64,000 nt of DNA. Source: a virus. Lineage: Duplodnaviria; Heunggongvirae; Uroviricota; Caudoviricetes. The notes beneath the pieces were generated by a model. That model ran no database searches and had not been told where the DNA came from. It saw only the letters and a list, made by a program, of their open reading frames with translations. The stretch lies in IMG/VR virus record IMGVR_UViG_3300021255_001482, positions 10,382 through 74,381 of that record. The stretch is one strand, 5' to 3'. The translations under genes were made by a program, and so were the position numbers. This document shows positions 2,642-60,895 of the stretch, piece after piece; within the stretch, counting starts at the first letter, position 1, and the number at the start of each line of letters is the position of its first letter.

Positions 2642-2989
2642 ATGAATATTTTTAGTTATCCCGCACGTTGTGATTTTTATGAATTTGACCGTTTGAGCAA
2701 AGAAGTGGATGAAACTTTAAAAACTAAAGAAATCTTTATGAACGGTCATGTAGGAAAATATGTGGCAAAAATTCATAATGAGCAAGAATTAGAACTAATA
2801 AAAAATTACTGGAAAGTTGCACTTTCTAGTAGTATAAGCATAGTCACTATTGAAAATGGTGATTTTCGCGGGCCAGACTGGTATTTCATATTCATAAAGC
2901 ATGAATATGCTTATGAAACAATTTGTACTTTAAAAACACTTACAGAACGTAAGCAAGAATTTGAAGATTTTGTGAGGGAATATGATTAA
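2642..2989 (+). CDS. Hypothetical protein.
   Basis: The ORF shows ATAATATG translational coupling with the upstream gene. Confidence 0.45.
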   Translation: MNIFSYPARCDFYEFDRLSKEVDETLKTKEIFMNGHVGKYVAKIHNEQELELIKNYWKVALSSSISIVTIENGDFRGPDWYFIFIKHEYAYETICTLKTLTERKQEFEDFVREYD

Positions 2990-3800
2990 GGTAGATAGAA
3001 GAGAAGTGCAATTTAAGAAGTTTAATGATGGTACTTTGAGATTGCGATTTATACCTCCTTATGCACTAGAAAATGGTTGTATCATCACTTGGTTTTATAA
3101 TAATGATGAAGAAATGGCAGATTTATATTTTCTTGTAAATCATTTACGCGATAATTATAAAATTTTATATTTAATTCTTGAAATGTGGTATGTTCCGCAT
3201 GCTCGAATGGACAGAATTAAGGAAAAAGATGAATGTTTTACTCTCAAACATTTTTGTAAATTTATTAATTCGCTTAATTTTAATAAAGTAAAAATTTATG
3301 ACCCGCATTCTAATGTTACTCCAGCGTTACTAGATAGGGTTGAGGTTTATAGACCCGCTCTTGAAATTAATGGATTATTAGATCATTATAAAGACGCAAC
3401 TTTATTTTTCTGTGACGAAGGCGGTGCTAAGAGATATAAGGATATTATTGGAGATAATTATTTTGCGTTTGGTGTAAAAGATCGAGAGTGGTCAACTCAA
3501 AACATTAATTCTCTTCAGGTTATGGGCGCGAAACATATGATTGCCGGGCATGATATTCTTATTGTAGATGATATTATTTCTCGCGGAAGTACGCTTTATC
3601 TTGCGGCAAAACAATTAAAAGAAATGGGATGCAATAACATTTATGTATGGGCATCGCATTGCGAAAATACTGTACTTCAACCGCATATTAATGGAAAATC
3701 ATTAATGGATATTCCAAATTTAATTACAAAAGTATATACTACAAATTCTATTTATTGTAGCGATCATCCAAATATAATTATTATGAAGGAATTTACATGA
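2982..3800 (+). CDS. Ribose-phosphate pyrophosphokinase (Prs)-family type I phosphoribosyltransferase.
   Basis: Prs-like motifs are present in Prs order: DPHS (cf. DLHA), CDEGGAKR (cf. PDAGGAKR), the PRPP-binding loop ILIVDDIISRGSTL, and C-terminal YVWASHC. Confidence 0.55.
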   Translation: MIKVDRREVQFKKFNDGTLRLRFIPPYALENGCIITWFYNNDEEMADLYFLVNHLRDNYKILYLILEMWYVPHARMDRIKEKDECFTLKHFCKFINSLNFNKVKIYDPHSNVTPALLDRVEVYRPALEINGLLDHYKDATLFFCDEGGAKRYKDIIGDNYFAFGVKDREWSTQNINSLQVMGAKHMIAGHDILIVDDIISRGSTLYLAAKQLKEMGCNNIYVWASHCENTVLQPHINGKSLMDIPNLITKVYTTNSIYCSDHPNIIIMKEFT

Positions 3801-4258
3801 TTAGAATAATAGAAGGAAATTTATTTTCCGCACCTAGCGGTATTATATGCCATCAAGTAAATTGTAAAGGCAGCATGGGACGAGGCGTGGCTAAAACTTT
3901 TAAAGAACTATATCCGTTTGCTTTTAATCAATATCAAAATTTATGTCATGATTTTATAGCAGATGAACTACTTGGTACAATACTAATGCGCGCGGAAATA
4001 GATGGTAAATGGACTTGTTGTATGTTTGCTCAGGATAATTGGAGCGTATATAATTGTAATACAGACTACGCAGCCTTTCGCGAATGTTGTTGCGCAATTA
4101 AGCGTGAAATTAAAGGATTACATTTAAATAACATAACAATTAATATGCCATACGGTATTGGTGCTGGTCTTGGCGGTGGCGAATGGGAAATTATTTATTC
4201 TATTATTGAAGAAGAATTAAATGATTATAATGTTATACTTTGGAAACTTAAACATTGA
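3797..4258 (+). CDS. Macro-domain (ADP-ribose binding/processing) protein.
   Basis: N-terminal IIEGNLFSAPSGIICHQVNCKGSMGRGVAKTF matches the macro-domain pattern (G-[DN]-[IL]..; IvNaaN; GgGvdgAI). Size is about 150 aa. It overlaps the Prs-like gene by 4 nt. Confidence 0.45.
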   Translation: MIRIIEGNLFSAPSGIICHQVNCKGSMGRGVAKTFKELYPFAFNQYQNLCHDFIADELLGTILMRAEIDGKWTCCMFAQDNWSVYNCNTDYAAFRECCCAIKREIKGLHLNNITINMPYGIGAGLGGGEWEIIYSIIEEELNDYNVILWKLKH

Positions 4259-4283
4259 CTTTTAATTAAAATTATATTATAAT
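4255..4283 (+). promoter_or_regulatory. Conserved promoter family member.
   Basis: TTGACT 4255-4260 and TATAAT 4278-4283, with a 17-nt spacer. Confidence 0.5.
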
Positions 4284-9589: not shown

Positions 9590-10530
9590 TGGCACAAAAT
9601 AATGTAAAAGCAACCTTGATTCTCCGTAATGACTCCGCCGAAATGTGGGCGTCTAAAAATCCAAAATTAGCACGCGGTGAAGTTGGTATTGAAATTGATA
9701 CCGGTTTAGTCAAAGTTGGCGATGGCGTTACTAATTTTAACGACCTAGATTATATAAATACTCATACTAATGTTGATGGCATATTAACCACTTTAGTTGA
9801 TGATAAAATCAGCGTAGCAGACTTTGGAAAGACTTATTGGTATTATAATGAAAACACTTTTGAAGAAATACAAGTAAATGAAACAGATTTAACAAAATGG
9901 CCTACTAGGGTAGAATTAGAAGTAAAAAATGGAACGGCTCGTTGGGTGCGACCAAAAGCAACATATGACCCAATGCAGGGTACTTTAGATGGTGTTTTAG
10001 TTACTCTTGTGCGTGATCCTCAAGCCAATAATGAAGCCTCTACAAAAAATTATGTAGATGTTACAGTAGCAAACGCTGTTGCTAGTGCTGACCATCTTAA
10101 ACGTCGTGTAGTCACTGAACTACCTACTACAAGTATTGAATCCAATACCATATATATGATAAAGGATACTACTGCTACTGGTGCAGATAAATATAAAGAA
10201 TATATTTCAATAGATGGCGTCCTGACTCAAATTGGTGATACATCAGTGGATTTAACTAACTACGTTCAGAAACCTTCTGTACAAGCTCCAGGTAACTTGG
10301 CAAGTATAGCGGCAGATGGTAGTTTGGTTGATAGTGGAGTCGCCGCAAGTGATGTGGGTAAATTAAATATTGCTACCTCCACAACGCTAGGTGGTGTATA
10401 TTCTAGTAATGCTGATAACAGTGTTTCAGTTGACTCTATCACTGGTATTATGTCACTTAATCGTGTTTCAACTACAAAATTATATGTTCCAAATGGTGAT
10501 GAATTTATTCTTAATGGCGGTACAGCATAA
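9589..10530 (+). CDS. Tail fibre protein with a HylP/hyaluronidase-phage-type N-terminal anchor motif.
   Basis: N-terminal LRNDSAEMWASKNPKLARGEVGIEIDTGLVKVGDGVTNFNDL has the conserved R.D....W......GE......K.GDG..W..L pattern. Three downstream ORFs share it. Confidence 0.6.
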   Translation: MAQNNVKATLILRNDSAEMWASKNPKLARGEVGIEIDTGLVKVGDGVTNFNDLDYINTHTNVDGILTTLVDDKISVADFGKTYWYYNENTFEEIQVNETDLTKWPTRVELEVKNGTARWVRPKATYDPMQGTLDGVLVTLVRDPQANNEASTKNYVDVTVANAVASADHLKRRVVTELPTTSIESNTIYMIKDTTATGADKYKEYISIDGVLTQIGDTSVDLTNYVQKPSVQAPGNLASIAADGSLVDSGVAASDVGKLNIATSTTLGGVYSSNADNSVSVDSITGIMSLNRVSTTKLYVPNGDEFILNGGTA

Positions 10531-27992: not shown

Positions 27993-27996
27993 CCAT

Positions 27997-29580: not shown

Positions 29581-29665
29581 GGGAGATTAAAGTGATAAAG
29601 TAGACACGCAGGTCTGTAAAACCTGTCCTTTCGAGGTCGAGTGGGTGCGATTCCCTCATCTCCCA
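29581..29665 (+). tRNA. tRNA-Tyr (GTA), type II.
   Basis: Acceptor GGGAGAT/ATCTCCC, anticodon arm CAGGT-CTGTAAA-ACCTG, long variable arm. Length 85. The T-stem is imperfect by eye. CCA is encoded. Confidence 0.5.
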
Positions 29666-29672
29666 CCATAAC

Positions 29673-29886: not shown

Positions 29887-29890
29887 CCAT

Positions 29891-29919
29891 TTGACTTTTA
29901 GTATAATTTCTGTTATAAT
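29891..29919 (+). promoter_or_regulatory. Conserved promoter driving a 320-nt ncRNA + tRNA-Ile.
   Basis: TTGACTTTTAGTATAATTTCTGTTATAATTATTATG. Confidence 0.55.
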
Positions 29920-30241
29920 TATTATGTAAGGTTGAGATAGGAAATAATAACAGCTGATAAAATTCCATTCTTTATGCGGAAAGTGGGGCCGCAAACCTTA
30001 CATCAATTCCCGCTGGGTACGAGTAACAGCGTCGTAGAAACATAAGCCGGTGCATCGACTTATGTAGGTATGTACGTGAACCATACCAAATAAACCGAGT
30101 GTCTAGGGACGAACTACACATCCTTAGCCGAAACGCACAAAAACTTGCGCCAAGTGTAGTGGTAGCTATTGGGGACTGGATAGAAACCAATAGGAAGAAG
30201 CAAGTTGCTGGTTTTACATCCCTGCGGTTTACCAGCTATTT
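29920..30241 (+). ncRNA. Roughly 320-nt promoter-driven ORF-free structured RNA upstream of tRNA-Ile (unclassified).
   Basis: It starts about 25 nt after the promoter at 29891-29919. No ORF of 60 aa or more is present. GC-richer helices (GCGGAAAGTGGGGCCGC, ATAAGCCGGTG) are present. Confidence 0.35.
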
Positions 30242-30318: not shown

Positions 30319-30746
30319 ATAAGGTTCACCCTGTAATCCTCCTTAATCGCGAAAGGGAAAAGGGCCTGTTGCAGCTAATAGTATGAGAATAGTAGAGCTT
30401 GTACTATGTATTTGCAGTATGTAAATGCCGGGAGTTCTCTTGCCCCGTTAAGGTAGTCCGGAATACACACAAGATTCGCTCGGTAACTAGATTTATCGTT
30501 ATTAACGAGTCTAGCGGAAGTCGTCCTCGTTAGTGGTGGCCACGAATCCGTGCGTGAATAATAGGCGGTGAGGTCTCAGATGGAGAGTATCTACCAATAA
30601 GAGCAAATGATACACAAATATTTCTTGGAGTATACACAACGCGAGTGTTAACTCCTTTACAATGTTCCTCGCGGTGAAATCAAATGGAGGCTCGGATGGA
30701 TTGAGGCCCGGAAGATGCCAATAGGAGAAGAAACCGCGAGATTTAT
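30319..30746 (+). ncRNA. Roughly 430-nt ORF-free structured region between tRNA-Ile(GAT) and the interrupted tRNA-Ile(TAT).
   Basis: There is no ORF on either strand. Many local helices are visible. Function unknown. Confidence 0.3.
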
Positions 30747-30894
30747 CGGGAACTAGCTCAGTAGGTCAGAGCAGCGGCCTTCACGAAGTACAATCAAGTA
30801 GATGGTCTGACACCACTCAGGCGGGTGATGGGTTCAAGTCCCTCCTTCGTGACCAATAAGCCGTGTGTCCTGGGTTCGAGTCCCAGGTTCCCGA
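30747..30894 (+). tRNA. Interrupted tRNA. Removing a 74-nt tRNA-like insert (30782-30855) from the anticodon loop gives tRNA-Ile (anticodon TAT, loop CTTATAA).
   Basis: Acceptor CGGGAAC/GTTCCCG, D-arm GCTC-AGTAGGTCA-GAGC, anticodon stem GCGGC/GCCGT, T-arm CTGGG-TTCGAGT-CCCAG, A73, CCA. The insert is itself tRNA-like (CACGAAG...CTTCGTG-A-CCA with a TTCAAGT loop). Confidence 0.5.
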
Positions 30895-30923
30895 CCAACT
30901 ATTTGTTAAGGAGAACATAATAA

Positions 30924-31520: not shown

Positions 31521-32495
31521 ATGTTTGGTCTAATTTTAGCTATTGTTGTTATTATTGCTGGTTTTATCGTAGCAAATGTAATGTTTCCAGATGTAACAAA
31601 GCGTAATGGTGACACGAAAAGTAGGAGTTCAATTCGCACAATTATTCGTGCCGTTGCCTTCATTATTGCCGCAGGATTAATTATTCTGTCTTGTATTTCT
31701 TATGTACCAACTGGTTATACTGGAATTGTAACAACTTTTGGTAAGGTACACGAGCACACGCTTGACGCAGGTATTAATTTCCATGCGCCTTGGGACAATG
31801 TAATTACTATGGATAATCGTGAACAGCGCGCAACTTTCCAACTAGAAGCATTTTCAAAGGATATTCAGCAAGTAGATATTCAAGGCTCTATCAACTATAA
31901 TATTGATAAACTAACCGCTATGAATCTATATAAGGACGTAGGCACTGGATATGTCAATATTCTAATTGGCCCTCGTATTCAGGAAGATGTAAAGATTGTT
32001 GTTGCTCGTTATACTGCTGAAAATCTAATTGCTAGTCGTCAAGAAGCAGCTAATGCTATTGAGACTCTTATTCGTGATGAATTAACTTCAAAGGGTATTA
32101 ATGTAATTTCTCTTGCAGTAGAAAATATTGACTTTACTGATGCTTTTGAATCTGCCGTTGAAGCAAAGCAAGTTGCTACGCAAGAAAAGCAGCGTGCCCA
32201 GACCCAGCAAGAACAGGCAACAATGGAGGCAGAGCAGGCCGCAAAGCGCAAGAAGATTGAAGCAGAAGCAGCGGCCGAAGTGGCAAAGGTGCAAGCAGAC
32301 GCCGATGCATATTCTACACAGGTAAAGGCGGCCGCGGAAGCAGAAGCTAATGAAAAAATTAATAAGTCTCTAACTGAAGAACTTGTAAATTATCGTCAAA
32401 TCCAGCGCTGGAATGGAGAACTCCCTCAATTTGTTGGCGGCGGTTCCACTATTCCTATCTTAAACATGGATAAAACTACCGAAACTACAGATTAA
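31521..32495 (+). CDS. SPFH/band-7 (prohibitin/HflK-like) membrane protein.
   Basis: It has an N-terminal TM, then the SPFH core (YVPTGYTGIVTTFGKV...), then an Ala/Glu/Gln-rich coiled-coil. A terminator follows at 32511-32534. Confidence 0.6.
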   Translation: MFGLILAIVVIIAGFIVANVMFPDVTKRNGDTKSRSSIRTIIRAVAFIIAAGLIILSCISYVPTGYTGIVTTFGKVHEHTLDAGINFHAPWDNVITMDNREQRATFQLEAFSKDIQQVDIQGSINYNIDKLTAMNLYKDVGTGYVNILIGPRIQEDVKIVVARYTAENLIASRQEAANAIETLIRDELTSKGINVISLAVENIDFTDAFESAVEAKQVATQEKQRAQTQQEQATMEAEQAAKRKKIEAEAAAEVAKVQADADAYSTQVKAAAEAEANEKINKSLTEELVNYRQIQRWNGELPQFVGGGSTIPILNMDKTTETTD

Positions 32496-33757: not shown

Positions 33758-33948
33758 AATTTATCTATGATGATAATCTATATGACGCGATGAAAGACGT
33801 ATATGATTATGCTTATCGCGTTTTCTTTGGAAAGGCTCCAATAGATGTTATTTATCGTATGAACCGTGGCTGTAAAGGCGCGGAGCAAAAAGTCCTACAA
33901 TACATTTGGGATACCTATATTGAACCGAAAGGAGAAGAAAATGAGTAA
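33754..33948 (+). CDS. Small hypothetical protein.
   Basis: It shows ATGA coupling. Confidence 0.4.
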   Translation: MKFIYDDNLYDAMKDVYDYAYRVFFGKAPIDVIYRMNRGCKGAEQKVLQYIWDTYIEPKGEENE

Positions 33949-34531
33949 TATTTACTTTACAAGCGACACTCATTTTTCACATAATCGTGGCTTTCTTTAT
34001 GAGCCACGAGGGTTTTCTTCTATTGAAGAACATGATGAAACTATTATAGAAAATTGGAATAAAGTGGTAAAACCAGAGGATGTAATTTATCTTCTTGGCG
34101 ATGCTATGCTAAATGATAATGATAAGGGCATCCAATGTTTAAACAAGCTTAATGGCCGAATCTTATTTATTCGCGGTAATCATGATAGCAATGAGCGCAT
34201 TTATCGTATTTACCATGAATGCCCAAATATTCTTTTTGTAGAGAATGGCTCAGAAAATTTCTGTACAGTTGCCGCAGTTAAAAAGTTCAATGGTTATAAT
34301 GTATACTTATCGCATTATCCAACTTACACCAGTTATATTGAGAATATGGCACCGTTAAAGAAGCATATGTTGAACTTCCATGGCCATACTCACTCAAAAG
34401 ATAAGTTTTATCAAGACATTCCTTTTATGTATAATGTAGCACTTGACGCACATAACAATGCACCAGTGTCCTTTGATGAAATTATTTCAGATATTGAAGC
34501 AAAAGCAAATGAATGTATTGCTATGCTATAA
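33941..34531 (+). CDS. Calcineurin-like metallophosphoesterase.
   Basis: It has the motifs IYFTSDTHFSH, LLGDAM.ND, RGNHD and HGHTH. The RBS is AAAGGAGAAGAAA. Confidence 0.65.
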   Translation: MSNIYFTSDTHFSHNRGFLYEPRGFSSIEEHDETIIENWNKVVKPEDVIYLLGDAMLNDNDKGIQCLNKLNGRILFIRGNHDSNERIYRIYHECPNILFVENGSENFCTVAAVKKFNGYNVYLSHYPTYTSYIENMAPLKKHMLNFHGHTHSKDKFYQDIPFMYNVALDAHNNAPVSFDEIISDIEAKANECIAML

Positions 34532-35470: not shown

Positions 35471-37006
35471 ATGTCTATGAATCGTCTTTACAATGCTATG
35501 GCTTCTCAGAACACCTACAAGACCACTGAAAATGGTGCTGTTGCGCGCACCACGACCAGCTCTAAGCTATATGACCTATTCTCTTTCGGTGCGGCTTATC
35601 GTCAGCGTACCGAGAGTGATTGCGTGCTCCTATTTAAGGAGGCATATAAGGAAAGCCCTATGTATGCCCTAAAGTGCCTGTTCTATATCCGTGACATTCG
35701 CGGCGGACAGGGTGAACGTCGTTTTTTCCGCACTTGCCTGCATTGGCTTGCGGATTATGACCGCAACGCAGTACTACGCAATCTTGACCAGATTGCTGAG
35801 TATGGCCGCTGGGACGACCTATATGCTCTCGTAGGAACTTCCTGCGAGCATGAGGCTCTATATGCTCTTGGTAAGCAGCTTGCCCTTGACTACAAGACCA
35901 AGGGTGCTATTTCCCTTGCCGGTAAGTGGGCGGCTTCCGAGAACGCTTCTTCTGCCAAGACTAAGCGTTATGGACGTCTAACTGCCCACGCTATGGGTCT
36001 AACCTCTCGTCAGTACCGTGTACTGCTTTCTAACCTTCGTGAGCGTATTCGCGTGCTGGAGCGCCTTATGTCCGCAAATCGGTGGAATGAGATTGAATTT
36101 GACAAGATTCCTTCTCGTGCCGGCCTGATTTATAAGAATGCTTTTGCTCGTCGCGATCTAATCAAGGCGAAGTATGAAGCGTTTGCCAAGGATACCTCTA
36201 CCAAGGTTAACGCAGCCGCGCTATATCCTTATGATGTGGTTGCTAAGGCCATTAAGCTTATGGGTTCAAACTATAGCTGGTATGGCCGTGGCAGTAATGT
36301 CGCCCTTGACAACACCGATCGCCTGATGATTAACAAGTATTGGGAGAATCTAACTGATTATTTCCATGGCATGTCTCTGAATGCCCTTGTTGTCGCCGAT
36401 ACAAGTGGAAGTATGACGAGCGGTGCTGGTAGCGTTGCTCCTATTGATGTCGCAGTCTCTCTTGCTCTTTATGCCGCAGAGCGTAATAAGGGGCCTTTCG
36501 CGAACTCTTACATTAGCTTCAGCCGCACGGCGAAGTTTGTTGAGACTCGCGGCGTAGACTTCTGCGACAAGGTTGACCGCATCGTAAAGACGAACCTTTG
36601 CGAAAATACCAATCTACAGTCTGTATTTGACCTTGTGCTAAATACTGCTATTCGGAATTATCTGCGTCAGGAAGATATGCCTGAAACCATTGTCATTATC
36701 AGTGACATGGAAGTAGACGGTATGCAGGGATACTCCTCTTGGAGGGGCGATGCTCCTGGTATGAAGGGTGTTCAGACCTTTATGGATAAGATCCGTAATA
36801 CTTGGTCTTTTCATGGCTATAAGCTACCTAAGCTAGTTCTGTGGAACGTAAATGCCCGTAACAACACCGTGCTTGATGCTGGCCCTGACGTTTCTTGCGT
36901 GAGTGGCTGCTCTCCTGTCATTTTTGAAATGGTTATGTCTGGAAAGACTGGCTATGATCTAATGATGGACAAGCTTAACAGCTCTCGATACGCGGCCATC
37001 AAGTAA
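35471..37006 (+). CDS. Ro60/Rsr-like (TROVE-like helical N-domain + C-terminal vWA with MIDAS) protein. DUF2828-type.
   Basis: The N-terminal box TENGAVARTTTSSKLYDLFSFG...SPMYALKCLFYIRD aligns with the Ro60 N-terminal box (qDGyVwqvTdmnRLhRFLcFG...ePMLFALAIC). The MIDAS-like motif VVADTSGSM sits at about residue 310. It follows the promoter at 35376-35404. A terminator follows at 37023-37054. Confidence 0.5.
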   Translation: MSMNRLYNAMASQNTYKTTENGAVARTTTSSKLYDLFSFGAAYRQRTESDCVLLFKEAYKESPMYALKCLFYIRDIRGGQGERRFFRTCLHWLADYDRNAVLRNLDQIAEYGRWDDLYALVGTSCEHEALYALGKQLALDYKTKGAISLAGKWAASENASSAKTKRYGRLTAHAMGLTSRQYRVLLSNLRERIRVLERLMSANRWNEIEFDKIPSRAGLIYKNAFARRDLIKAKYEAFAKDTSTKVNAAALYPYDVVAKAIKLMGSNYSWYGRGSNVALDNTDRLMINKYWENLTDYFHGMSLNALVVADTSGSMTSGAGSVAPIDVAVSLALYAAERNKGPFANSYISFSRTAKFVETRGVDFCDKVDRIVKTNLCENTNLQSVFDLVLNTAIRNYLRQEDMPETIVIISDMEVDGMQGYSSWRGDAPGMKGVQTFMDKIRNTWSFHGYKLPKLVLWNVNARNNTVLDAGPDVSCVSGCSPVIFEMVMSGKTGYDLMMDKLNSSRYAAIK

Positions 37007-59102: not shown

Positions 59103-59615
59103 ATGAAAATTTATTTAGCGGGTTCAATATTTTATCACGGTGATGTTTTGCGAAACACAGAGTGGGCCGCAAAAATTCGTGCGGCAATACCTAACGTAGA
59201 TTTATATAGCCCTATTGAAAATACGGAAATTAATGGTGCAGAAGGTAAAAAGAAGTTCGCAGGCTCACAAGAAATTGCTAATGGTGATAACATTAGACTA
59301 AATAACACTGATATTCTTGTTGCTTGTATTGACGGCGATATTCTTCCTGCGGGAACTTGTGCAGAAATTGGTAAGTTCCACGAAAAAATTGAGCGTGGCG
59401 ACCATAAATATATTGTAGGCATTTGCACAGATAATCGTCAAATGTATTTAACTCATAGTGAAGCTAAAAATACTGGTGGTGCAGCTGCACTTGGAGAACA
59501 GCAATATAGTTATCAAAATCTATATGTAACTGGTTTAATTAAGCAAGGCGGTATTTTAGTATCTAATATTGAAGATGCTATTGCTTTTATTAAAGAAAAG
59601 GAGAATGAATTTTAA
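59103..59615 (+). CDS. Nucleoside 2-deoxyribosyltransferase.
   Basis: It has MKIYLAGSIFY and ILVACIDGDILPAGTCAEIGKFHE motifs of the Nuc_deoxyrib_tr family. Confidence 0.55.
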   Translation: MKIYLAGSIFYHGDVLRNTEWAAKIRAAIPNVDLYSPIENTEINGAEGKKKFAGSQEIANGDNIRLNNTDILVACIDGDILPAGTCAEIGKFHEKIERGDHKYIVGICTDNRQMYLTHSEAKNTGGAAALGEQQYSYQNLYVTGLIKQGGILVSNIEDAIAFIKEKENEF

Positions 59616-60895
59616 TGAATAATATGTTATATGGTATTAACGATAAACTTCCAACAAAGCGACTAATTGTCGCCGCACTACAGCAAGTAGTTGCGTGCTT
59701 TGTTGCAACCGTTCTAATTCCACAGATTTGTGGTATTCCTATTGCACCAGCGATGGTTGGCGCTGGCTTAGGAACTCTAATTTACCAGTTATTCACTCGC
59801 GGCCAAAGTCCTATGTTTATTAGTTCTTCTGGAGCATTTGTTGCCGCGATTATTGGGGCGCTTGCGATTGGAGCCGCTCCAAACTTTACCGCAGTCGCGA
59901 TTGGCGGCCTGATTGTTGGCCTTATTTATTGTGTAATTGGTTTGGTAATAAATAAGTTTGGAACTGATTGGGTAAATAAGCTTCTACCACCAGTTGTAAT
60001 TGGGCCTATTGTTGCAGTTATTGGTCTAAATCTAGCTACGTTTCTACCAACCTATTTTCAAATTAATGGGCAATACAGTCTAATTGGACTTGGACTTGGT
60101 ATGCTAACTCTCATAATTACTGCTTTAATTTCTCATTATGGAAAAGGTTTTATTAAGAACCTACCTTTTCTATTTGCGATTTTAATTGTATATGCATTTT
60201 CCGCTCTACTAACTGTTTGCGGTATTCCAATTATTGATTTCTCTGCGTTCCAACATATGAGACTAATTCAAATTCCTGATTTTTCATTCTTCCATATGAA
60301 CTTCACGCATTTTAATTGGTCTTATCTACCACAAATACTACTACTATTTGCTCCACTGTCACTCGTATGTATTGCAGAACACATCTCTGACCATAAGGCT
60401 TTAAGTGCTGTTATTGGAACAGACCTAACACAAAATCCTGGTGTTGGTAATACTCTAATTGGTGATGGTATCGCTTCTACACTTGGTGGCTTGATTTGCG
60501 GCCTGATGAACACCTCATATGGAGAAAGTGTCGGTACAACTGGTTTTAGTAAAATTTGTTCTCGTTATGTAATTAGTCTGGCCGCGGTTATTATGGCCGT
60601 TTCTGGTTTCTTTGGCCCACTCCAAGCCTTCCTAGTATCAATTCCAGCGTGTATTTTTGGAGGATGTGCTGCAGTTCTTTACGGATACATTACCCTATCT
60701 GGTATTCGCACAATTAAGGATAGCAATATTGATTTAAATAATAATAAGAACATTACTATTCTTGCTTCTGTTCTAACTCTTGGTGTATCTGGTGTTGTAT
60801 GTAATTTTGGAGTTGTAAGTATTGGAACAACTGCTCTTGCTATGATTGTAGGTATTATTCTAAATCTTATCTTAAAGGAGGAGAAGGTAGCTTAA
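59615..60895 (+). CDS. Nucleobase:cation symporter-2 (xanthine/uracil permease family) membrane transporter.
   Basis: It has 12 or more predicted TM segments. The GVGNTLIGDGIAST..GGL and SGAFVAAIIGALAIGAAPN motifs are typical of NCS2. Confidence 0.55.
   Translation: MNNMLYGINDKLPTKRLIVAALQQVVACFVATVLIPQICGIPIAPAMVGAGLGTLIYQLFTRGQSPMFISSSGAFVAAIIGALAIGAAPNFTAVAIGGLIVGLIYCVIGLVINKFGTDWVNKLLPPVVIGPIVAVIGLNLATFLPTYFQINGQYSLIGLGLGMLTLIITALISHYGKGFIKNLPFLFAILIVYAFSALLTVCGIPIIDFSAFQHMRLIQIPDFSFFHMNFTHFNWSYLPQILLLFAPLSLVCIAEHISDHKALSAVIGTDLTQNPGVGNTLIGDGIASTLGGLICGLMNTSYGESVGTTGFSKICSRYVISLAAVIMAVSGFFGPLQAFLVSIPACIFGGCAAVLYGYITLSGIRTIKDSNIDLNNNKNITILASVLTLGVSGVVCNFGVVSIGTTALAMIVGIILNLILKEEKVA

Follow-up and report, generated by a model that had tools for sequence, protein, structure and literature searches.

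A phage tRNA-Ile gene interrupted in its anticodon loop by a tRNA-shaped insert, and its relatives in a clade of large gut phages

Closest described systems

To our knowledge, the bacterial and phage tRNA introns of known mechanism are all self-splicing group I ribozymes, and tRNA splicing by protein enzymes is generally seen as a feature of archaea and eukaryotes. The subject of this study is a tRNA-Ile(UAU) gene that is split in its anticodon loop by a 74-nt tRNA-shaped insert, at positions 30747-30897 (+ strand) of a 64,000-nt stretch of tailed-phage DNA (positions 10,382 to 74,381 of the IMG/VR record IMGVR_UViG_3300021255_001482; hereafter, the window). The locus belongs to a family of mobile, tRNA-shaped anticodon-loop inserts found in a clade of large phages known from animal-gut metagenomes, where at least seven tRNA types are affected; related contigs and loci are given L numbers below. 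Our observations suggest that inserts of the window type are the minimal form of a barely described kind, and that they point to a concrete splicing mechanism.

Group I introns exceed 200 nt, have a conserved core (P3-P9), and end in G. Like the inserts described here, those of the cyanobacterial tRNA-Leu(UAA) kind lie in the anticodon loop, often after U34, and have a sporadic, mobile distribution; the Ile insert is also preceded by U at position -1. These general likenesses, together with the group I identity of known bacterial tRNA introns, are what would recommend a self-splicing or self-cleaving ribozyme (a degenerate group I intron, hammerhead, twister, or similar), an explanation that we find scarcely credible. 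The inserts measure 44-77 nt and comprise at least 11 types that share no sequence core, solely a terminal helix and tail; their last base is the A of CCA, not the omega-G of group I; and no Rfam family was found for the insert or its precursor at E-values up to 10. A preliminary description of this locus, made from the sequence alone, had set a group I intron aside on length, and rightly so.

Archaeal and eukaryal tRNA introns (bulge-helix-bulge, or BHB, motif; EndA or TSEN; RtcB or Trl1) offer the same protein-based logic of cutting and ligating, with the exons held by the tRNA body, and some archaeal introns occupy non-canonical positions. In the Ile gene, however, inspection and the minimum-free-energy fold show no BHB motif: CUU of the loop cannot pair with any part of GACCA, a central helix of 4 bp is lacking, and the anticodon stem and the insert helix are separated asymmetrically (5' side, ∼3 nt; 3' side, ∼8 nt). 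The signal here is instead a tRNA acceptor end, and Pfam, PHROGs, and NCBIfam searches found no EndA among the open reading frames (ORFs) of the window. Embedded tRNA-like structures are cut by RNase P and RNase Z in other settings, including mascRNA from MALAT1, mitochondrial tRNA punctuation, and the permuted tRNA genes of Cyanidioschyzon, which join such cuts with ligation in a loop. In contrast to the present case, none of these is known to place the signal in the anticodon loop of another tRNA or to require the flanks to be rejoined, and permuted genes are its topological inverse. Another parallel is the phage T4 repair system (Pnkp/Rnl1, and also Rnl2 and RtcB), where a phage ligase reseals the broken anticodon loop of an otherwise intact tRNA; that repair answers host-nuclease damage, whereas here the break would be programmed by gene architecture. 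Large phages pair their tRNA sets with repair ligases (Iyer et al., 2021; PMC7824862).

The only precedent that we found is a set of "enigmatic" tRNA introns in Lak megaphages, one of which "itself may encode a tRNA" and truly lies one base off its predicted position (Devoto et al., 2019; PMC6784885). That study gives no mechanism and no analysis of covariation or mobility, and we found no mechanistic follow-up in the literature outside subscription-only papers. As in the window, the Lak inserts are not group I introns, lie in phage anticodon loops, are polymorphic among relatives and highly conserved where present, and contain a nested tRNA-like unit that ends flush with the 3' splice site; the one that may encode a tRNA is misplaced by one base by a tRNA finder, as happens here with ARAGORN. 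They differ in being 79-114 nt long, with a 5' hairpin and an A/U-rich linker before the tRNA-like unit and a 5' splice site that is not the 5' end of the unit; in ending at or near the discriminator, with no CCA; and in their hosts (Tyr, Phe, Gly, and "Thr"). Window-type inserts consist of the tRNA-like unit only, bounded by its base pair 1 and by CCA, and inspection of Table S6 of the Lak study revealed no sequence similarity between the two. On our re-reading of that table, the tRNA nested in the Lak "Thr" intron ends at the discriminator, flush with the 3' splice site, and Lak tRNA genes do not encode CCA. Because the Lak unit ends at the discriminator, and the window insert stops at CCA, which every tRNA gene of its genome encodes, the 3' splice site in both systems is the genome's own tRNA 3' end.

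The interrupted tRNA-Ile(UAU) gene

Read from the sequence, the gene spans 151 nt and consists of two perfect tRNA halves around the insert. The 5' exon (30747-30781, + strand; CGGGAAC TA GCTC AGTAGGTCA GAGC A GCGGC CTT) provides the 5' strand of the acceptor, the D-arm, the 5' strand of the anticodon stem, and loop bases C32, U33, and U34. The 3' exon (30856-30897, + strand; ATAA GCCGT GTGTC CTGGG TTCGAGT CCCAG GTTCCCG A CCA) resumes with A35, U36, A37, and A38, and continues through the 3' strand of the anticodon stem, the variable loop, the T-arm, the 3' strand of the acceptor, A73, and an encoded CCA. Between them lies the insert (30782-30855, + strand; type A in the classification below), which starts with CACGAAG and ends with CTTCGTG-ACCA. 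These ends form a 7-bp closing helix (30782-30788 with 30845-30851) followed by the tail A-CCA (30852-30855), while the interior contains a T-loop, TTCAAGT (30833-30839), within GGG-TTCAAGT-CCC on a bulged 5-bp stem, as well as the hairpin GUCUGA-CACCAC-UCAGGC.

Removal of 30782-30855 yields a 77-nt product that ARAGORN calls as tRNA-Ile(tat). It is a canonical cloverleaf in which a 7-bp acceptor is joined by the D-, anticodon-, and T-arms; the anticodon loop of 7 nt has U33 and a purine as base 37, and the discriminator and CCA form the 3' end. The anticodon-stem strands, which are 81 nt apart in the gene, then enclose the loop CTTATAA, and the predicted junction is GCGGCCUU^AUAAGCCG (also written GAGCAGCGGCCUU^AUAAGCCGUGUG). 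This is the anatomy, and UAU the anticodon, that the preliminary description had assigned; the observation is real, and both assignments are confirmed.

The gene escapes standard ARAGORN and the Rfam tRNA model, neither of which makes a call at 30747-30897. An intron-tolerant search, a check proposed at the outset and run here with the intron mode of ARAGORN, does call it as an intron-containing tRNA. A custom scan for an acceptor helix, T-arm, discriminator, and CCA returned exactly two over-length candidates in the 64 kb, this gene and 42215-42348 (134 nt), and the intron mode calls both. A 7-bp helix followed by N and CCA is unremarkable by itself (46 non-tRNA instances in the window vs. 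∼39 in shuffles), and fold-energy z-scores are not significant (-1.3 and -0.2), stability alone being uninformative here. What exceeds chance is the flush placement of the insert between perfect cloverleaf halves, and the fact that 10 distinct related genes repeat the arrangement with compensatory changes. Neither target-site duplications nor inverted repeats of the DNA-transposon type were seen on inspection of the junctions.

Pattern scans of viral, metagenome, and genome collections yielded ten distinct interrupted Ile genes with the same outer stem-loop. Spliced in silico at CUU/insert/AUAA, all ten are called tRNA-Ile(tat) by ARAGORN, and this junction, which places the insert between U34 and A35 as first proposed, is the only one that yields a single anticodon, UAU, for all of the homologues. 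In intron mode, ARAGORN sets the intron one base to the right, and its call flips among tct, tgt, and tgg with the first base of the insert. The tRNA-Arg(UCU) reading that results from this shifted junction was rejected: homologues whose insert starts with G give tgt or tgg, CTTATAA is the loop of the gene's intact twins, and Arg(UCU) is already provided by another gene of the window. As background to the Arg reading, the 5' half of the tRNA-Ile resembles Arg(UCU) tRNAs of Hafnia and Serratia phages. Since standard finders miss interrupted genes or misassign their anticodon (Arg, Thr, or Pro for Ile), phage tRNA repertoires, and inferences on codon usage or recoding drawn from them, are biased.

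Uninterrupted copies of the gene are found in relatives. A tRNA of Dulem virus 39 has the same body (...GAGCGGCGGC-CTTATAA-GCCGTGTG...), and the sister phage L148/L057, with a ligase 92% identical to that of the window, has an uninterrupted Ile gene that differs by 1 nt from the window's spliced product and scores 69.5 bits against Rfam RF00005. The interrupted state is a derived minority, given this copy and the occurrence of the intact stem-loop in at least 120 viral contigs. Among GenBank phages, megablast gave no match to the locus, and blastn gave fragmentary matches to the tRNA halves only.

The outer gene is under selection for its fold. In an alignment of 10 distinct rows (nine interrupted genes and the intact Dulem virus 39 tRNA), the cloverleaf has standard pairs in 99% of cells. 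The acceptor stem, whose strands flank the insert, has double compensatory changes at six of its seven pairs (variants CGGGAAC/GTTCCCG, CGTTCCC/GGGAACG, CGATCCC/GGGATCG, GTCCAT/ATGGAC, and CCTCCAT/ATGGAGG); none of 500 shuffles reached the observed values, and slid controls were 28-45% paired. A fortuitous acceptor pairing, which the preliminary description had named as the way its reading might fail, is thus contradicted. The Ile anticodon stem was fixed by the search pattern and carries no covariation information. In a sample anchored on the ligase, independent of tRNA sequence, and comprising 83 loci of related phages with 269 ordinary tRNAs, the anticodon stem is compensated in interrupted Glu genes (CCGGC/GCCGG vs. 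UUGGC/GCCAG, with an insert that is 100% identical) and in interrupted Asn genes (GUCGG/CCGAC vs. UUCGG/CCGAA). The encoded CCA has been lost from the outer Ile genes of L004/L150 and L007/L149 (...CCCGACTA and ...ATCGAGAG), in which the nested insert keeps ACCA.

Codon usage bears on the same question: in the window, 25% of the Ile codons are ATA and 47% of the Leu codons are TTA. Transfer RNAs with UAU and UAA are absent from its ARAGORN set, and the two interrupted genes are its only decoders of this kind. The compensated outer stems and this heavy use of ATA and TTA argue against a dead outer gene, and we therefore consider it very improbable that the gene is a functionless pseudogene, recently killed by a mobile tRNA-like element. 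Such a loss would agree with the silence of standard finders, with intact copies being far commoner than interrupted ones, and with the outer genes of L004 and L007 that end without CCA. It would not lead one to expect ten distinct interrupted genes from independent metagenomes that retain their pairing with double compensation across the insert, nor one insert type in outer alleles whose acceptor stems differ at five positions per strand, all of them compensated, nor the recurrence of the pattern in seven tRNA types.

Inserts in other tRNA genes and in sister phages

The second over-length candidate is a type II tRNA-Leu(UAA) gene on the + strand. Its 5' exon (42215-42250) ends in the loop bases CUUA, and is followed by a 47-nt minihelix insert (42251-42297; CGUGGG...GGAG-AGCAGCA-CUCC-UU-CCCACG-ACCA) and a 3' exon (42298-42348) with AAA, the 3' strand of the anticodon stem, a long variable arm, the T-arm, the acceptor, and A-CCA. 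The Rfam tRNA model aligns to 42215-42345 (42.8 bits) by treating 50 nt of the anticodon loop as an insertion. Read as GCGGA-CUUA / CGUGGG...CCCACG-ACCA / AAA-UCCGC, the gene without 42251-42297 has the loop CUUAAAA and anticodon UAA, with the predicted junction GCGGACUUA^AAAUCCGC; an intact Leu homologue in L148 has the same loop. The insert helix covaries (CGUGGG/CCCACG vs. CGUAGG/CCUACG), and the insert is 94-100% identical across six host Leu genes that are mutually 69-78% identical.

Seven tRNA types are interrupted in the related contigs: Ile, Leu, a second UAA tRNA, Glu, Lys, Asn, and Gln, with additional cases coming from the ligase-anchored sample. The loop is divided as CUUU / 44 nt / CAA in Glu(UUC), as CUG / 49-50 nt / UUAA in Asn(GUU), as CUU / insert / UGAC in Gln(UUG), and at two positions in Lys(UUU), CUUU / 75 nt / UAA in L170 and CUUUU / 73 nt / AA in L052. 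The second UAA tRNA, interrupted in L147, is of class I, with a short variable loop. In L152 (∼10114-10190) and L147 (7237-7360), such a class I tRNA(UAA) stands beside an ordinary type II tRNA-Leu(UAA), and the insert in the L147 copy has the tail ACAA, not ACCA. For each interrupted type, the loop left after excision is that of the intact homologue.

The inserts share one geometry. Every insert opens on pair 1 of a helix of 6-7 bp and runs exactly four bases beyond the end of that helix, and its boundaries are therefore those of a tRNA acceptor end. The tail is NCCA in 13 of 15 distinct inserts and NCAA in the other two (L147 and the L170 Gln gene). In a set of 14 inserts that represents six host tRNA types, with the Gln insert analyzed apart, pairs 1-6 of the closing helix are formed in all 14, with 95.9% of cells paired over 7 pairs, although this statistic is partly circular as the filter demanded a 6-bp helix for some members; all pairs covary, and controls slid by 1-3 columns are 40-59% paired. 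In most inserts, folding stacks a hairpin on the 3' strand of the closing helix, giving ∼12 bp in total. The acceptor/T-arm half of a tRNA is the part recognized by RNase P, RNase Z, and the CCA-adding enzyme, and with their stack of ∼12 bp and single-stranded NCCA, the inserts have the minihelix geometry of a predicted substrate for RNase P and 3'-end processing. A related arrangement may exist in L170 (13632-13741, equal to L169 4995-5104), where a 110-nt tRNA-like gene has two T-arm-like hairpins (GGACG-UUCGAUU-CGUCU and GUGGG-UUCGAUU-CCCAC); here, a minihelix may have been inserted in the variable region instead of the anticodon loop.

Within the interrupted Ile genes alone, there are at least five insert types (A-E). 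Type A (the window, L024, and L007/L149) is 74 nt long and 91-96% identical among homologues; its three variants differ almost solely in the hairpin loop (CACCAC, CACUAC, or AAUUAC) and in a compensated pair of the bulged T-stem. Type B (L004/L150, L005/6, and L022) is a canonical cloverleaf tRNA with anticodon CUA, and types C, D, and E are other tRNA-shaped RNAs, some without a T-loop. The tRNA-like character first ascribed to the window insert, on the basis of its acceptor-like start, its T-loop, and its complementary end with A-CCA, holds, and in some relatives the insert is a full tRNA(CUA). The window's own insert is not a decoding tRNA: ARAGORN makes no call at relaxed settings, the Rfam tRNA model gives no match at E-values up to 10, the 6-nt "anticodon" loop varies freely, and the T-stem is bulged. 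Recoding of TAG was considered as an explanation for the nested tRNA(CUA) of relatives and rejected; a comparison of coding density was non-discriminating and gave no evidence for recoding, and the lone "in-frame stop" in a DUF5662 orthologue proved to be a TAA upstream of the true start. A type D interrupted Ile(UAU) gene occurs in L025 (JAGBTH010000175.1, 3.4 kb), filed under a "Kiritimatiellae bacterium" metagenome-assembled genome from yak cecum, which is probably a mis-binned phage contig.

The presence of inserts is polymorphic gene by gene among sister phages. In the window, Ile and Leu are interrupted while Glu, Asn, Lys, and Gln are intact; in L148, Ile and Leu are intact while Glu and Asn are interrupted. 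The outer Ile genes of the window and L150 are 100% identical, whereas their inserts are of types A and B (64% identity), and each of these two types is found in two outer alleles. Furthermore, the type C insert of the Ile gene in L008 is 84% identical to the Lys insert of L170, such that one insert family is common to Ile and Lys genes, occupies two different Lys positions, and also occurs free-standing. Since the histories of insert and host gene are decoupled, the inserts behave, judging from these comparisons, as mobile cassettes.

The free-standing form of type C is a 75-nt RNA gene that lies directly upstream of the repair cassette described below, at L148 1125-1203 (equal to L057 ∼166-244), L153 ∼4188-4262, and L159 ∼1368-1445. 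It follows the intact Ile(UAU) gene by 4 nt in L148 and by a similar short spacer in L153, and has no preceding tRNA in L159. In its predicted tRNA-like fold, which shows compensatory pairs, an acceptor-like stem of 6 bp is combined with a D-like arm and with a 5-bp stem that carries the invariant 10-nt loop AAAGCAAGGG. The RNA also has a conserved GGGCRGUAC motif, ends in NCCA, and matches no Rfam family. The orthologous site lies upstream of a conserved small ORF, and there each of the five distinct loci has either the nested or the free-standing form, never both. This exclusivity, together with the conservation of the Leu insert, suggests that inserts are kept for a function of their own, and are not merely tolerated.

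One such function could involve the Ro60-like protein that these phages encode. ROT/TROVE proteins act with a tRNA-like partner RNA (PMC7824862), and type C RNA is a candidate partner for the Ro60-like or SPFH proteins of the cassette. As with Ro60/Rsr and Y RNA or YrlA, a Ro60-like protein is present and a conserved tRNA-shaped RNA adjoins it in sister phages. Unlike in those systems, the long Ro-binding stem of Y RNAs is not seen, and the type A insert of the window is another sequence; binding is putative. A reading that takes the nested RNA as the real product (a partner RNA of the Ro60-like or SPFH protein, or a suppressor tRNA in relatives), freed by tRNA end-processing enzymes, and the outer tRNA as a carrier, whose halves are discarded and never rejoined, draws on this association, on the invariant loop and compensatory pairs of free-standing type C at the cassette head, on the exclusivity of the two forms, and on a Leu insert that outlasts the divergence of its hosts. 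We judge it rather improbable, as a carrier would have no need of the canonical 7-nt anticodon loop that excision restores in all seven host types, of compensated anticodon and acceptor stems, or of the role of sole UAU and UAA decoder for heavily used codons. It is compatible with our preferred explanation, set out below, if both RNAs are functional.

A possible splicing route and the RNA-repair cassette

We put at about an even chance the reading of 30747-30897 as a functional tRNA-Ile(UAU) gene whose nested tRNA-shaped RNA is a mobile intron dependent on protein enzymes. Splicing itself, and every enzymatic step in it, we infer from the sequences; endonucleolytic release followed by ligation, as the preliminary description envisaged, appears to be the best-supported mechanism. 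The insert would act as the "top half" of a tRNA: an acceptor-like helix and a T-arm-like hairpin form one stack, and NCCA forms the tail. The 5' junction coincides with the first base pair of this unit, and the 3' junction with the final A of its CCA. The precursor would fold into two tRNA-like domains. Host RNase P would cut 5' of insert pair 1, leaving a 3'-OH on exon 1, and an RNase Z/BN-type endonuclease that processes tRNA 3' ends, and whose cut can fall behind an encoded CCA, would free the insert and leave a 5'-phosphate on exon 2. The outer acceptor, D, and anticodon stems would keep the two exons together until the nick is sealed by an ATP-dependent ligase, for which the phage's Rnl2-like enzyme at 38049-38699 is the likeliest candidate, to give the 7-nt loop CUUAUAA. 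The 3'-OH and 5'-phosphate ends left by RNase P and RNase Z need no healing before an Rnl-type ligase. All 29 tRNA genes that ARAGORN finds in the window, each on the + strand, encode CCA, and 24 of them have U at -1, as does the Ile insert, which matches the proposed processing. Once released, the insert may itself work as a tRNA-like RNA, serving as suppressor tRNA in some relatives and as partner of the Ro60-like repair module in others.

The candidate ligase belongs to a cassette 3' of the interrupted Ile gene, in the order SPFH, DUF5662, metallophosphoesterase, DUF2828/DUF7788, cREC, and RNA ligase, with those located below all on the + strand. At its head is an SPFH/Band-7 protein (31521-32495; PF01145, E = 1.5e-26). 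A calcineurin-type metallophosphoesterase (33866-34531; PF12850 and PF00149; PDB 1xm7 at E = 1.5e-9) is possibly an RNA end-healing enzyme. The DUF2828/DUF7788 protein (35471-37006) is Ro60-like by Pfam and structure matches, combining TROVE and vWA parts: its AlphaFold model has a pLDDT of 76, and the top nine Foldseek matches in the PDB are all Ro60/Rsr/TROVE (E = 7e-8 to 2e-5). More than 7,900 database relatives at E < 1e-10 make this a very large family. Immediately upstream of the ligase is a protein with a cREC cyclic-phosphate-processing receiver domain (37462-37818; PF20274, E = 8e-17). The ligase itself (38049-38699; PF09414, E = 7e-17) has 216 residues and lies 7 kb from the Ile gene. 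It scores below the Rnl2-family threshold (TIGR02307, 28.6 bits vs. a cut-off of 197) and is sub-threshold for TIGR02306 as well; it has no C-terminal domain, its match to T4 Rnl2 in the PDB is weak, and solely the general PF09414 nucleotidyltransferase match is significant. This ATP-dependent enzyme is a distant Rnl2/DraRnl relative of the nick-sealing (3'-OH/5'-P) class, and a candidate for sealing the exons.

The earlier pointer to an RNA ligase encoded nearby holds as far as presence goes, but its weight as evidence for splicing is slight. Ligase sets of this kind in large phages are described as repairing tRNAs cut by host anticodon nucleases (Iyer et al., 2021; PMC7824862). As the cassette is of this tRNA-repair type, the default role of the ligase is unrelated to splicing, and since its family is also far commoner than the inserts, proximity is only weak evidence. 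The ligase is kept at 67-95% identity in every large related contig with interrupted tRNAs, and interrupted genes appear in the ligase-anchored sample solely where its identity to the window enzyme is at least 67%. Co-occurrence was nonetheless rejected as a test of splicing, being uninformative: the large clade members all have the ligase, and so do many phages without inserts. For the more distant insert-bearing loci L005/6, L008, and L052, the contig stretches are too short to judge its presence.

Several points weigh against enzyme-dependent splicing by this route. We know of no bacterial pathway that rejoins RNase P and RNase Z products. Encoded CCA inhibits RNase Z in many bacteria, and the NCAA ends of two inserts speak against strict CCA recognition; these two facts make cleavage on the 3' side the weakest step. 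The nicks that Rnl2-type enzymes prefer lie in duplex RNA and not in loops. The ligase family occurs in many phages without interrupted tRNAs, and in the window shares its cassette with cREC and the phosphoesterase. The greater conservation of the Leu insert than of its host gene, the exclusivity of nested and free-standing copies at the orthologous site, and the partial circularity of the helix statistic add to this side.

The same cassette is the basis of the main rival explanation, which reaches the same spliced product through other chemistry. A dedicated phage or host endonuclease would read the helix and its 4-nt tail and leave a 2',3'-cyclic phosphate and a 5'-OH, which cREC, the metallophosphoesterase, and a kinase would heal before the ligase seals, following the same logic as tRNA splicing in archaea and eukaryotes and the repair of anticodon-nuclease cuts. 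cREC lies directly upstream of the ligase and the metallophosphoesterase 3.5 kb upstream, and the two NCAA tails suit a ruler-type enzyme better than CCA recognition. Additionally, cREC is linked to RNA ligases elsewhere, such combinations being heal-and-seal repair sets (PMC7824862). We nevertheless consider this chemistry unlikely. Searches with Pfam, PHROGs, and NCBIfam revealed no candidate endonuclease (EndA, PrrC/RloC-like, or RtcB) and no polynucleotide kinase among the window ORFs, and a dedicated nuclease would not need the inserts to mimic a substrate of tRNA end processing, which they do up to a canonical tRNA in relatives. RNase P and RNase Z were likewise not found among these ORFs in the same searches, and in the route that we prefer RNase P would come from the host.

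As a broader proposal, which we advance tentatively and rate somewhat below an even chance, these inserts may represent a third kind of phage tRNA intron, neither group I nor BHB. Such an intron would be a mobile nested tRNA or tRNA-like gene, delimited by tRNA end-processing signals, excised by RNase P and a 3'-end nuclease as a potentially functional RNA, with the host tRNA resealed by a phage repair ligase, and spreading at the RNA level. In that last step, a mature CCA-ended RNA would be ligated into a nuclease-opened anticodon loop and then copied back into DNA. This would explain why the copies run exactly from +1 to CCA, and why the hosts are of the U34 or Q34 type (Lys, Glu, Gln, Leu-UAA, Asn, and Ile-UAU), which are typical targets of anticodon nucleases. 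If correct, a bacterial virus would possess enzyme-dependent tRNA splicing, built from housekeeping tRNA end-processing enzymes and an RNA-repair ligase, which would explain the Lak-phage introns and offer a route by which RNA-repair systems become institutionalized splicing systems. It would also establish nested RNA genes (a tRNA inside a tRNA) as a mode of gene organization, and would amount to a simple, genetically encoded "excise-and-reseal" RNA cassette.

The remainder of the window is that of a tailed-phage genome (∼36% G+C), with tail fibre, tail protein, and endolysin families. Its tRNA array contains further features on the + strand. A probable type II tRNA-Tyr(GUA) at 29581-29668 (GGGAGAT...CUGUAAA...ATCTCCC-A-CCA), with the unusual T-loop UGCGAUU, is missed by ARAGORN and the Rfam tRNA model. 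A full-length ROOL RNA (RF03087, 324 bits, E = 7.5e-74) lies at 43300-43893, between tRNA-Leu(UAG) and tRNA-Asn. Two non-coding spacers, 29890-30241 and 30319-30746 (∼350 and ∼430 nt), are relatively G+C-rich and contain no ORF; as structured RNAs they have no Rfam match, and their z-scores are near 0. Blocks upstream of Ile(UAU), CACAACGCGAGTG...CTCGCGG...GGATGGATTGAGGCCC, are conserved in L148, L153, and L022. Several neighboring tRNA genes are one nucleotide apart (CCA-N-tRNA, at 27995/27997, 29814/29816, and 39246/39248), and with this spacing the RNase P cut of the downstream tRNA nearly completes the upstream 3' end. Elsewhere in the window are auxiliary nucleotide and NAD genes (2982-3800, 3797-4258, 59103-59615, and 59615-60895), with matches to ribose-phosphate pyrophosphokinase (and, more weakly, a NAMPT-like protein), a weak Macro domain, nucleoside 2-deoxyribosyltransferase, and xanthine/uracil permease, and several proteins of the tail region have CBM_5_12 domains.

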